Source: a virus (lineage: Duplodnaviria > Heunggongvirae > Uroviricota > Caudoviricetes). From it: a DNA stretch of 10,060 nucleotides. The stretch lies in IMG/VR virus record IMGVR_UViG_2695420540_000013; one strand, written 5' to 3'. Below are positions 1,180 through 4,734 of the stretch, piece by piece. The translations under genes and the position numbers were made by a program. Position 1 is the first letter of the stretch, and the number at the start of each line of letters is the position of its first letter. The notes below the pieces were generated by a model that saw only the letters and a list, made by a program, of their open reading frames with translations, made no database searches and was not told where the DNA came from.

Positions 1180-3060
1180 TCATGAAGAAATCGCTCTGAC
1201 CATTCCGCGATAATCCAGAGCAGCAACGCCAGCATCAATGCGGACCTTCCAGGCCACACCGTCAACAATAAAGCCCTCCTGCTGCTCAAGGTAAGGCTCG
1301 TCATTACCGTCAAGATAAGCCACCTCAATTGTGTCCGTTCCCTGTGCTGAAAGCATGTACCATTGCTTATCACTGACTTCATCAAGGCGGGGATCGACAA
1401 TAATATCCAGTTGTTTGTGGTACGGGTTATATGAACCACTGTTTGTATCGGCACCGAAAGGCGTGGTTGAGTTAACCATTTGCAACGCTCTGTCTTCCAG
1501 AGCCGCAGGAACAAGAAGGAATTTTGGCACAATATTCAGCACCTCACCGTTTTCATCCCTCTGTGTGCGCATTGCACGGCGTGCAATGCCAAGCCCTGTA
1601 GTGCTGACTCCGTTATCAATATCATTTCCGTGTTTTTTGCTGAACAGCGGTATACCGTCAGAAAGCTTTGTGTTTCCTGTCAGCACCAGATGAACCAGAT
1701 TACCCACCGTTCTGGCGGCTGCTCGCCCCATTGCCTGTGGGATAACTGTTAACTGATTCAGGTCATCGTTAATAATCGCCTGTCGGGTAATGCTGAAAAT
1801 ATTTCCGTAAGTTGCCAGCGCGATTGGTTCGCCACGGTCACTGGTGGTGATGTATTTATATTCCGCGCCTTCCGGCACTTTGTTTAATGTAGAGAAGCCA
1901 TTCAGGCCAACACGACGTGCCTCATGGAAGTTTGACAATGAACCTTTTTTCGTCCACTGGCGGAACGTTTCGCCGCTGTGTTCCCATCCGGCAAGCACGG
2001 ATTTTTCAGCACCACCAGCAAGGATATAAGTAAAATCGCTGCTGCTGTGGGTGAATGCCGCGTTTACTATCTGCGAGCGTGTGCTGTAGCTGCCTGTGCT
2101 TATGCCGCGATGGGTTAATGATGCCTGTGCCATATCGAAAAGGCTCATCATGGCGTAAGGGTTGCCGCGTTCTGCCTGTTCATGTCCCAGACGCGCATTA
2201 AGCCCCTGACGCATTGCATCGCCGGTTATGTTGCCGTTATCCGTGTACGCGTAGTAAAGATTTGCGGGGGTGGTTTTGTTTGTCGGTGTCGATTCTTTAC
2301 CCATAGTGAGTAAAAGGCGTTCGCGTGCATCCTCAACGCTACAGCCTGAATCAGCAAGACAACTTATAGCCAGGTCGTTATATCTTCCATTGAACGTGCC
2401 AAACAATTCACGTATCCCGTTGAGTCGTTCCTGTTCTCCGCTGCCAGTTTTCTGGCTGATCATGCTTTTAATATTTTCCGGCATATTCGAAAAATCTCCG
2501 ATTCGTTTTGATTCAATTCTGGCCATTGCTGTAATCGCGGGTATAACCTCATCTGCGAAGCCATTAGCCTTACACTCATTGCCATCCATCCAGGTTTCCG
2601 CCTCCATCATGGCGGTGATTTCCTGTTTGCTCCTGCCCGTTCTTCCGGCGTAGGTTTCCGCCATCGTGTCGCCCAGCTTGTCCATCAGGTCAGCAAAGCG
2701 GCGAACGTCGCCCGACACTCCGGCAGTAACACCACGGGGGGCATGTATCATCATCATCGCGTTTTCAGGCATAACGATGTGATCGCCACACATGGCAATA
2801 AACGAGGCCATAGAAGCCGCCATGCCTTCAATGTGTACAATTTTCTTTGCCGGATGATTTTTCAGGGCGTTATAGATAGCCAGCCCTTCAAAGATGTCGC
2901 CACCAGGTGAATGGATGCGAAGATGGATTTCAGGCACATTACCGCACGCGTTGATCTCGTCAGTAAGTGCCGATGCTTTTACACCGTACCCGCCGATCTC
3001 GTCATAAATGCGTACATGTACAACATCAGCCATAGCCTTAATGGAAAACCATGTTTTCAT
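1180..3060 (-). CDS. ClpP/S14-like prohead (head maturation) serine protease fused to an HK97-fold major capsid protein, 626 aa
   Basis: The N-terminal ~190 aa carry ClpP-family signatures: HSPGGDIFEGLAIYNAL (cf. ClpP INSPGG..IY), EGMAASMASF (cf. GQAASMG, catalytic Ser) and MMMIHAPRG (cf. MIHQPLGG, catalytic His). The C-terminal ~430 aa resemble phage major capsid proteins (assigned from context and general look, not from a specific motif). ATG at 3058..3060 with AGGAG 7 nt upstream; an in-frame ATG at 3031..3033 is an alternative start. Confidence 0.85.
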   Translation of the reverse strand: MKTWFSIKAMADVVHVRIYDEIGGYGVKASALTDEINACGNVPEIHLRIHSPGGDIFEGLAIYNALKNHPAKKIVHIEGMAASMASFIAMCGDHIVMPENAMMMIHAPRGVTAGVSGDVRRFADLMDKLGDTMAETYAGRTGRSKQEITAMMEAETWMDGNECKANGFADEVIPAITAMARIESKRIGDFSNMPENIKSMISQKTGSGEQERLNGIRELFGTFNGRYNDLAISCLADSGCSVEDARERLLLTMGKESTPTNKTTPANLYYAYTDNGNITGDAMRQGLNARLGHEQAERGNPYAMMSLFDMAQASLTHRGISTGSYSTRSQIVNAAFTHSSSDFTYILAGGAEKSVLAGWEHSGETFRQWTKKGSLSNFHEARRVGLNGFSTLNKVPEGAEYKYITTSDRGEPIALATYGNIFSITRQAIINDDLNQLTVIPQAMGRAAARTVGNLVHLVLTGNTKLSDGIPLFSKKHGNDIDNGVSTTGLGIARRAMRTQRDENGEVLNIVPKFLLVPAALEDRALQMVNSTTPFGADTNSGSYNPYHKQLDIIVDPRLDEVSDKQWYMLSAQGTDTIEVAYLDGNDEPYLEQQEGFIVDGVAWKVRIDAGVAALDYRGMVRAISS

Positions 3061-3251
3061 AGCCAGGCTCCTAACGTTGCCCTGTACCAGTATTCAACCG
3101 CGCTTCTCGCAATCTGCCCTTTCGTGGGTACTGGCATTCCAGGGTGATGACTTTTAATGAACTGCTGATAGCGTTCGAGCTTCTCCATAGTTCCGGCGTC
3201 TATGTGCACTGTTGCACTTTTATCCGGTTTTCTGCTGTTGTTCTCTGGCAT
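3057..3251 (-). CDS. Small hypothetical protein, 64 aa (75 aa if started at the ATG at 3282..3284), first gene of the capsid operon
   Basis: ATG at 3249..3251 with a GGAGG Shine-Dalgarno 7 nt upstream; the upstream ATG at 3284 has no RBS. Its stop overlaps the capsid start in an ATGA junction (3057..3060). Confidence 0.5.
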   Translation of the reverse strand: MPENNSRKPDKSATVHIDAGTMEKLERYQQFIKSHHPGMPVPTKGQIARSAVEYWYRATLGAWL

Positions 3252-3324
3252 AAGTCTGCCTCCGTTATGATTAACGGGCATCATTATTGATCGATAAAAC
3301 TGGTAAATAAATCATTTTCTATCT

Positions 3325-3354
3325 AAAAATCAGATTATGTGTTTTCTGATTTTT
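3325..3354. promoter_or_regulatory. Perfect 10-bp inverted repeat AAAAATCAGA-N10-TCTGATTTTT in the capsid-operon promoter region
   Basis: Read directly. Lies 40 to 70 bp upstream of the first start codon of the minus-strand capsid operon, in an AT-rich stretch with weak -35/-10-like hexamers (ATGACA ... TAATCT on the minus strand). Confidence 0.45.
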
Positions 3355-3432
3355 GTCATACCAGCAAAAGAATTGACTAATTATTGCCACGCCAGCACAA
3401 TTAAGACTCATCATTTCGGTAGTGGCAGTATC

Positions 3433-3496
3433 CTTTGTCGCTGACAAAGCGCCTCCGGTGGCACCATCGGGGCGCTTTTTTTTGCGCCTGTTTTTT
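3433..3496. terminator. Cluster of overlapping hairpins with U-tracts (terminator or attenuator-like), orientation ambiguous
   Basis: Hairpin CTTTGTC-gct-GACAAAG (3433..3449); GCGCC (3449..3453) pairs with GGCGC (3471..3475), followed by T8 (3476..3483); GGCGC (3471..3475) can alternatively pair with GCGCC (3484..3488), followed by T6 (3491..3496). Strong terminator shape on the plus strand, weaker on the minus. Directly abuts the masked block. Confidence 0.45.
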
Positions 3497-3498
3497 GT

Positions 3499-3749
3499 NN
3501 NNNNNNNNNNNNNNNNNNNNNNNNNNNNNNNNNNNNNNNNNNNNNNNNNNNNNNNNNNNNNNNNNNNNNNNNNNNNNNNNNNNNNNNNNNNNNNNNNNNN
3601 NNNNNNNNNNNNNNNNNNNNNNNNNNNNNNNNNNNNNNNNNNNNNNNNNNNNNNNCGNNNNNNNNNNNNNNNNNNNNNNNNNNNNNNNNNNNNNNNNNNN
3701 NNNNNNNNNNNNNNNNNNNNNNNNNNNNNNNNNNNNNNNNNNNNNNNNN
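3499..3749. other. N-masked / undetermined sequence block (251 nt, with an isolated CG at 3656..3657)
   Basis: Run of n characters; nothing inside can be interpreted. The six-frame ORFs crossing it (3401..3790, 3422..3880, 3435..4034) are artefacts of translating N. Confidence 0.99.
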
Positions 3750-4420: not shown

Positions 4421-4472
4421 AGGCTTTACCTCACAGCAATAAAATAAAATTTTTGCATTTTAACCCTTCACC

Positions 4473-4693
4473 TGTTCACCTTTTGCAATTTTCCCTTTTT
4501 ATTCATGATGTTAATGGGTTAACAGTTTCACAAAAACTATTCACCAACTGTTCACCACTGTTCACCCTTAAAGCTCAATAAAGAATCAAAAAGGTGAACA
4601 GTGAATAGTTTGGTGAACAGTTCATAAATAACTGTTCACCCTATAATATACTGATATAAAAGACATTTATTGCAGGGTGAACAGTGGTGAACA
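4473..4693. repeat. Iteron cluster, putative P4-type origin of replication (ori/crr-like): 8 perfect TGTTCACC/GGTGAACA octamers plus degenerate copies
   Basis: TGTTCACC at 4473, 4549, 4559, 4633; reverse complement GGTGAACA at 4593, 4612, 4676, 4686; variants TATTCACC (4538) and GTGAATAG (4601). An AT-rich stretch CTATAATATACTGATATAAAAG (4641..4662) sits inside. Located just downstream of the primase gene. TGTTCACC is the octamer I recall as the P4 alpha-protein binding iteron in ori and crr. Confidence 0.75.
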
Positions 4694-4734
4694 GTTATTC
4701 CATAAGTTTAATTTTTTCCATCGTCATTTGTGAC

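Follow-up and report, generated by a model that had tools for sequence, protein, structure and literature searches.

Several known arrangements of control sites beside promoters offer a comparison for the element considered here: a perfect inverted repeat at positions 3325-3354 of a 10,060-nt stretch of Caudoviricetes DNA (IMG/VR record IMGVR_UViG_2695420540_000013; hereafter the window), upstream of a leftward capsid operon. The Ogr/Delta-dependent late promoters of phage P2 and satellite P4 carry a TGT-N12-ACA dyad near -55. Like them, the window combines a morphogenesis operon of a satellite, under a weak promoter of its own, with a dyad lying a comparable distance upstream; unlike them, it shows no TGT-N12-ACA on either strand of 3252-3420 and no recognisable Ogr/Delta-like zinc-finger gene, and its cos-like copies match lambdoid Stx (Shiga toxin)-type phages rather than P2. 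In the staphylococcal pathogenicity islands (SaPIs), the packaging operon (operon I) is under LexA control, and here too a satellite capsid/packaging operon comes with a dedicated promoter and a candidate cis-acting dyad. Unlike operon I, however, the locus has no LexA box in or near the repeat: a search for CTGT-N8-ACAG with up to two mismatches gave nothing overlapping 3325-3354, and its only match in 3252-3420, CCGTTATGATTAACGG at 3262, is a LexA-like CCGT-N8-ACGG (3262-3277) whose two mismatches fall at positions critical for LexA. Omega-type ribbon-helix-helix (RHH) proteins read A/T-rich heptads, WATCACW for Omega itself. As in the operators of Omega, Arc and CopG, short A/T-rich inverted heptads stand in the window beside the gene of a small RHH-like protein, but here 10 bp separates heptads that are contiguous in those operators, the core promoter lies downstream of them, and hybrid relatives lack one arm.

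Two further comparisons come closer in position and in kind. With class I-type activator sites and UP elements (CRP at -61.5, for example) the locus shares a dyad some 60-70 bp upstream of divergent promoters, a poor -35 and A/T tracts. It departs from CRP sites in pairing the pentamers TCAGA/TCTGA across N10, a spacing that fits neither CRP (TGTGA-N6-TCACA) nor FNR (TTGAT-N4-ATCAA), and from the UP consensus AAAWWTWTTTTNNAAAA (about -59 to -38) in that the best matches have 4-5 mismatches in 17, although T and A tracts lie at the right distance from the predicted -35. A site for IHF (WATCAANNNNTTR, up to one mismatch) was likewise not found in 3252-3420. The window as a whole is an integrated satellite of about 10 kb in E. 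coli resembling the Gram-negative phage-inducible chromosomal islands (PICIs), with which it shares int, alpA, primase and cos, and whose cycle has AlpA as its master activator (PMC11773190). What separates it from these AlpA-driven islands is that no AlpA binding site is defined for them and that no copy of the motif lies near alpA or int here, and a link between AlpA and the repeat is conjecture. The Pseudomonas AlpA antiterminator element (GGGACG) was rejected as a model, being that of a different protein family.

The repeat was confirmed by reading the sequence and by a repeat search, as a preliminary description had claimed: two 10-nt arms, AAAAATCAGA and TCTGATTTTT, 100% complementary, on either side of the 10-nt spacer TTATGTGTTT. 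It lies in a 120-bp non-coding stretch bounded by a predicted leftward promoter on one side and by a predicted rightward promoter with its terminator on the other. Being real and placed upstream of a back-to-back pair of promoters, the repeat is probably a control site of an ordinary kind, bound by a protein. The more specific reading, which we favour tentatively, is that of an upstream protein-binding dyad common to the divergent promoters of the capsid operon and of a small RNA (sRNA), in an activator or auxiliary position. The features concerned are as follows.

3325-3334, no strand: left arm AAAAATCAGA, within the conserved upstream block of the capsid-operon promoter, about -49 to -58.
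3335-3344, no strand: spacer TTATGTGTTT, 10 nt; its start and the end of the left arm form the AGATTA box 3333-3338.
3345-3354, no strand: right arm TCTGATTTTT, found only in loci with the divergent sRNA module.
3283-3311, minus strand: predicted capsid-operon promoter, read from the sequence, with -10 AATAAT (3283-3288), 17-nt spacer and weak -35 TTTATT (3306-3311).
3373-3401, plus strand: divergent sigma-70-type promoter TTGACT-17-CACAAT, from a promoter scan (9/12 matches).
3406-3485, plus strand: putative sRNA of about 75-80 nt, unannotated, with an intrinsic terminator at 3449-3475 followed by T8 (3476-3483).

The geometry is what assigns the site its likely role. From the leftward transcription start, which we infer to lie near 3275-3277, the repeat extends from about -49 to -78, and its centre of symmetry (3339.5) falls at about -63 from that start and about -68 from the predicted rightward one; with a centre some 63 and 68 bp upstream of both, an activator or auxiliary site is indicated rather than a repressor site. 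The preliminary description was right to place the repeat in the promoter region of the leftward morphogenesis operon, which comprises a 64-aa open reading frame (ORF) and a ClpP-protease/major-capsid fusion. Its treatment of the repeat as a capsid-promoter element was too narrow, as the site is equally upstream of the rightward promoter at 3373-3401 and is thus shared. Of its suggestion that late-gene activators or repressors would bind there, the first part fits better, the predicted interval -49 to -78 suiting an activator or auxiliary factor and not a classical repressor operator. The distance of 41-70 nt upstream applies to the start of the longest ORF (3284), whereas the coding start with a GGAGG Shine-Dalgarno sequence, and the one used by RefSeq in most homologues, is the ATG at 3251-3249, 74-103 nt away from the repeat. 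The leftward promoter combines a good -10 (AATAAT) with a poor -35 (TTTATT) and scores 8 of 12 consensus positions against a scan threshold of 9; being under consensus, it fits a factor-dependent promoter. At the rightward promoter the TTGAC is invariant in the relatives designated class A below, and the majority E. coli allele scores under the scan threshold.

In the mechanism that we propose, the leftward promoter would serve the operon of the 64-aa RHH-like protein and the protease-capsid fusion, and the rightward promoter a short RNA ending at its terminator. The left half of the repeat would be part of the conserved upstream block of the capsid promoter, with the AGATTA box at a fixed distance from the -35, and the right half would have arrived with the sRNA module. 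A dimeric or multimeric regulator, whose binding and direction of action we infer, would read TCWGATT-type boxes and, while the satellite is in its induced cycle, determine how active one promoter or both are. Candidates for this regulator are AlpA, the operon's own RHH-like protein, and a factor of the helper phage or the host; that an RHH-like, DNA-binding-type protein is encoded immediately downstream was counted in favour of a binding site. The preliminary description had also set the repeat apart from the replication-operon operator, and its sequence does indeed differ from the dyad at 7429-7489 (TGTGTTTCATG / CATGAAACACA). The separate regulator of the capsid module deduced from this is possible, its basis being solely that the two sequences differ, and no binder can be assigned.

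Relatives of the region supply the second line of evidence. Megablast found it in 151 complete E. coli genomes at 84-87% identity and a more sensitive search in 318, of which 144 cover the whole query; in about 170 the match is confined to 3282-3337, the part of the promoter block that reaches as far as the repeat centre. An exact-pattern scan added 86 loci from IMG/VR and metagenomes; it was anchored on 3282-3311, so that conservation of those 30 nt in the fetched loci is by construction, and the repeat lay outside the pattern. Among about 100 related loci, those of class A share the small ORF of the window and have both the repeat and the sRNA module, and those of class B (about 48) carry the promoter block together with a small ORF that is a divergent homologue, and have neither sRNA gene nor right arm. 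In class B the promoter block and a left-arm-like sequence (AAAAATAGA / AAAAACAGA) are kept; the block runs into ...AAAAATAGATTAAT(N)AGATTCAGAC, and the upstream operon's terminator comes immediately after. The class A ORF occurs in 50 loci, including three hybrids (L078, L114 and L124) that combine it with class B upstream sequence. In 29 unique class A sequences, positions 3326-3334 and the cores AATCAGA/TCTGATT hardly vary, and variation is greatest at the dyad centre (3339-3341), as is typical where a symmetric protein reads a site. Identity to relatives is about 90% inside the repeat. Against the three divergent sRNA alleles, 3252-3354 is 85-100% identical and the 18 nt beyond the right arm (3355-3372) only 50-67%, and because identity falls immediately after 3354, the end of the conserved block coincides exactly with that of the repeat. 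A search for the core pattern AATCAGA-N8-12-TCTGATT gave one match in the window and no match in 200 shuffles.

The deepest-conserved piece is nevertheless not the dyad but AGATTA (3333-3338, in left arm and spacer), since an AGATT/AATCT box 26 nt upstream of the -35 is common to the window, class B and a Buttiauxella locus (L046), which was found independently by protein search and in which the promoter block is still recognisable. In L046 and class B a second AATCT follows 10 bp further upstream in direct orientation. The promoters of the Yersinia (L003) and Moellerella (L010) loci differ. These three loci were the only ones with the small-ORF architecture among 75 recovered by a contig search with the capsid N-terminus, all of them at most 57% identical and mostly true phages. 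A word-indexed protein search with the 64-aa ORF gave six matches, with all named source organisms E. coli, and a whole-contig search with the same protein as query gave no confirmed locus.

Several observations weigh against a shared dyad read as one unit. Both transcription starts are predictions, and the two promoters see the dyad 5 bp out of phase, the right arm being 5 bp farther from its own -35 than the left arm is from its own. A spacer of 10 bp is uncommon for simple helix-turn-helix dimers, and the motif has no second copy in the window at other promoters of the island. In the class A-ORF loci the repeat is 10/10 in only five of 50, namely the window and four loci identical to it there; three score 9/10, 32 score 8/10 (typically GAAAATCAGA / TCTGATTATT), six score 7/10 (four of them only in a shifted register) and four have no repeat. 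No class B locus rises above the background of 6/10, the right arm being absent there and the capsid promoter kept. In the majority allele the same bases fit a direct repeat equally well (TCAGATTATG / TCTGATTATT, 8/10). The relatives are also close, at 85-100% identity, and what looks like conservation could be inheritance rather than selection. Finally, a dyad with 7-nt arms, the form kept in relatives, appears in 25% of dinucleotide-preserving shuffles (used for all inverted-repeat counts) of the 247-nt intergenic region 3252-3498, compared with 0.7% for an inverted repeat with perfect 10-nt arms. On these figures a 10/10 match is moderately improbable by chance, and the family-typical 7-nt form, taken alone, is not significant. 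Perfect symmetry is private to this allele, and since class B keeps the promoter without the right arm, the full dyad is no conserved requirement for capsid-operon control; the weight that the preliminary description put on perfection was therefore overstated.

The majority E. coli allele (L002 7345-7360 and others) reads TCAGA-N10-TCTGA-N6-TCAGA, its second pair being a perfect TCTGA-N6-TCAGA with the 5-6-5 geometry of the CRP/FNR family. The corresponding TCTGATTTTTGTCATA of the window (3345-3360), which overlaps the right arm, matches the CRP pattern with two mismatches, and the third pentamer is conserved neither in the window nor in the L085 allele.

The first alternative to the shared dyad is that no factor reads it as a unit and that the symmetry is incidental, each arm being an A/T-rich, UP-like or curved stretch that belongs upstream of the promoter on its own side, and the two modules having been joined by recombination. 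The similarity between class A and class B stops at about 3337, the dyad centre, and the right arm strictly co-occurs with the sRNA module, as such a junction would have it. Moreover, the T5 tract of the left arm (about -49 to -53) and an A4 tract at 3317-3320 (about -41 to -44) lie approximately one helical turn apart upstream of a weak -35, in the zone contacted by the C-terminal domain of the RNA polymerase alpha subunit at UP elements. A/T richness is, however, insufficient to produce exact TCTGA/TCAGA in both arms or the 10/10 match seen in so few shuffles; the UP consensus is matched at best at 13 of its 17 specified positions, and the unequal spacing of the arms from their -35 elements also counts against this reading. 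We regard this as possible, if doubtful.

That the repeat has no function at all, being a chance feature of an AT-rich spacer perfected by drift and kept because the relatives are recent, we consider unlikely. Chance alone is not a poor provider: perfect 10-nt inverted repeats with spacers of up to 20 arise 0.25 times per shuffled 10-kb window (at least once in 16% of shuffles), the shorter dyad is as frequent as stated above, and the arms vary without compensation at 3325 (A/G/T), 3331 (C>T, three sequences), 3348 (G>A, one) and 3352 (T/A) among the 29 unique class A sequences, none of which has a double change. The enrichment of TGATT is also not significant after multiple testing: an array of TGATT boxes (four copies in 109 nt, P = 0.008 for that word) was rejected because 43% of shuffles have some 5-mer at four or more copies. 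Drift would not readily account, though, for an identity that falls sharply right at the end of the right arm in three alleles, or for core heptads kept nearly invariant beside a flank of 50-67% identity.

A third possibility, and in our judgement a slightly less likely one still, is autoregulation, in which the 64-aa RHH-like product would bind the AATCAGA/TCTGATT heptads, much as short repeats are bound by the repressors Omega, Arc and CopG, and would repress or tune its own operon. The genes concerned are these.

3057-3251, minus strand: gene of the 64-aa protein, first in the operon; family phrog_4934, predicted RHH-like fold.
1180-3060, minus strand: ClpP-like prohead protease/major capsid protein fusion, 626 aa (ORF list and annotation of RefSeq homologues).

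The 64-aa ORF (ATG 3251, GGAGG at 3259-3263) overlaps the fusion gene, and its class A and class B products both match phrog_4934. Its AlphaFold model (mean pLDDT 69.5) predicts an unstructured N-terminus followed by two helices, as in an RHH monomer, and the Omega heptad is one base away from AATCAGA; the product is plausibly a DNA-binding protein. No match for it was found in Pfam, by PDB sequence search or with Foldseek, and a Pfam search relaxed to E <= 10 was uninformative as well. The repeat does not lie over the core promoter, as would be expected of an RHH autoregulatory operator, but upstream of it at about -49 to -78, nor does it co-vary with the protein: the hybrids L078, L114 and L124 have the class A protein without the right arm, and the proteins of both classes keep the presumed DNA-reading strand (T/S-V-H-I/L-D), even though a dyad of this kind is missing from class B. 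These three points, of position, hybrids and strand conservation, argue against the inverted repeat as the main operator of the 64-aa protein. A more conventional candidate lies at the predicted transcription start itself.

3262-3277, minus strand: palindrome CCGTTA-N4-TAACGG, at the predicted mRNA 5' end, abutting the Shine-Dalgarno GGAGG at 3259-3263.

By its predicted placement this palindrome occupies a more classical operator position than 3325-3354, and it could be either a hairpin of the 5' untranslated region or an operator in the position of a classical repressor. Which palindrome separates the -10 from the Shine-Dalgarno of the small ORF differs by lineage: class B has CAGTAA-N7-TTACTG (L082 3955-3995), with the Shine-Dalgarno inside the loop, and L010/L003 have CTG-N9-CAG at about 2295-2320. 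Directly next to the predicted -10 of the capsid operon stands a GATC (Dam) site (3289-3292), which class B, Buttiauxella L046 (CGATCAATGAT) and Yersinia L003 (TTGATCATATGAT) have too; it could link promoter activity to replication or hemimethylation.

An RNA element, with the repeat transcribed (for instance by read-through from the upstream ssb operon) and acting as a hairpin terminator, processing site or stabiliser, is the least probable of these readings by far: it would fold at -9.7 kcal/mol on the plus and -7.8 on the minus strand (z about -3.7), but the repeat lies upstream of both predicted starts, is absent from the terminator-like sites called in 3000-3500, has two G-C pairs in ten and a T (U) run within the stem, matches no Rfam family and shows no compensatory change at the four positions where its arms vary; nor do the two transitions (L090 type versus L128) support an RNA helix, because they would give G-U wobbles on opposite strands.

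The account of the preliminary description did not include the gene of the predicted rightward transcript. The stretch ends in a strong terminator (GCGCC...GGCGC followed by T8, 3449-3483) and folds at a minimum free energy of -32.3 kcal/mol (z = -3.0). It holds no ORF, belongs to no Rfam family and corresponds to no feature annotated in the RefSeq homologues; a literal search for its sequence in literature text gave no match. Relatives carry three divergent alleles, in which AGACUC...UCAU, an anti-Shine-Dalgarno-like UCCUUUGUCG and the terminator segments are conserved. We describe it as a putative sRNA gene, conserved and unannotated, that is read divergently from the capsid operon and that at least 144 complete E. 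coli genomes carry. Among described sRNAs, Esr41 and the Pas sRNAs were considered for this gene and rejected: the former lies on SpLE1, and the latter adjoin phage structural genes, with no mention of the present context.

The 5' part of the sRNA (3404-3449, plus strand) is complementary, in two blocks, to the minus-strand RNA of positions 9-55, which is the leader of host clpS (-55 to -9) in the clpS-clpA operon, beside the insertion site of the island. The predicted duplex reaches -44.6 kcal/mol, a value attained by none of 6000 shuffles; the next-best site in the window gives -38 and the other alleles -21 to -26. The majority allele, paired with host DNA at its own insertion site (L001, L002), forms background duplexes only (-34 kcal/mol); L104, the single further contig of possible use for this comparison, ends in an IS21. 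As the whole window was scanned, the pairing is a lead and not a result, and it could represent trans-regulation of clpS, captured host sequence or chance. That the dyad couples the capsid operon to a trans-acting sRNA that targets the clpS-clpA leader (-55 to -9), and is thereby a bidirectional control point, we think very improbable as it stands.

The setting of all this is a compact island.

8822-10060, minus strand: integrase (ORF list).

From the integrase the island continues through AlpA (Pfam E = 5e-16), a DUF4222 protein, primase, iterons and SSB to the repeat region, the SSB and DUF4222 assignments resting likewise on ORFs and Pfam. Integrase, AlpA, a primase/replication module and a helper-type packaging site within about 10 kb, with no lysis or tail genes, are the marks of a PICI-type element, and the gene set matches that of the Gram-negative PICIs described in PMC11773190, to which a capsid gene is here added. 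RefSeq homologues annotate a tyrosine recombinase, a helix-turn-helix regulator, an Icd-like protein, a primase, an SSB and a 'ClpP-like prohead protease/major capsid protein fusion protein'. The junction with the host lies at about position 106, and the DNA before it (1-106) belongs to the E. coli core, occurring in 5425 of 5426 complete genomes. The clpS start codon comes directly after the base at position 1, so that about 106 bp separate clpS from the island, whose insertion point is the 3' end of yljB, a small gene. The same site is used by an element resembling capsid-forming PICIs (cfPICI-like) in strain FFFEB2 and by the class B islands L151, L165 and L169, and relatives elsewhere sit in tqsA or interrupt the large-terminase gene of a lambdoid prophage. 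When 50,697 phage records were searched by blastn with the promoter region, no match was returned; the promoter has thus not been copied from a sequenced helper.

Elsewhere in the window, a cluster of iterons, GGTGAACAG(T) in both orientations, lies at 4440-4700 beside the primase gene and is presumably the satellite origin. It accounts for the only two matches of a whole-window Rfam search in E-value mode, both spurious plant-miRNA hits over the iterons, with none at the repeat or the sRNA. Between a 93-aa ORF and the left junction are a perfect 11/11 palindrome without spacer (CGAGTTGCAGA/TCTGCAACTCG, 571-592) and a 14-nt palindrome at 421-446, which may serve as terminators or as arm sites for the integrase. 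A C-rich element downstream of the capsid gene, at 1040-1180, has about 90% identity to the intergenic DNA that separates Rz from the terminase genes in Stx phages and VT1-Sakai. The masked stretch 3499-3749 (N) can be read from the near-identical locus L088 (8533-8783) and is a paralogue of 1040-1180. Two copies of the cos region of its helper thus appear to be present in the satellite, 2.5 kb apart in 10 kb, and each cos-like copy follows a terminator.

Taken by itself, the repeat is an ordinary candidate operator, and its surroundings (the putative sRNA gene, the predicted clpS pairing and the two cos-like copies) hold more potential. Should the coupling to clpS prove true, the satellite would reprogramme the host's protease-adaptor system in step with capsid production. 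More generally, how capsid-carrying phage satellites of Gram-negative bacteria switch on their capsid gene has not been worked out, and a cis-element upstream of a promoter that appears to be factor-dependent would provide a handle on the regulator, whether it is encoded by the satellite, its helper or the host.
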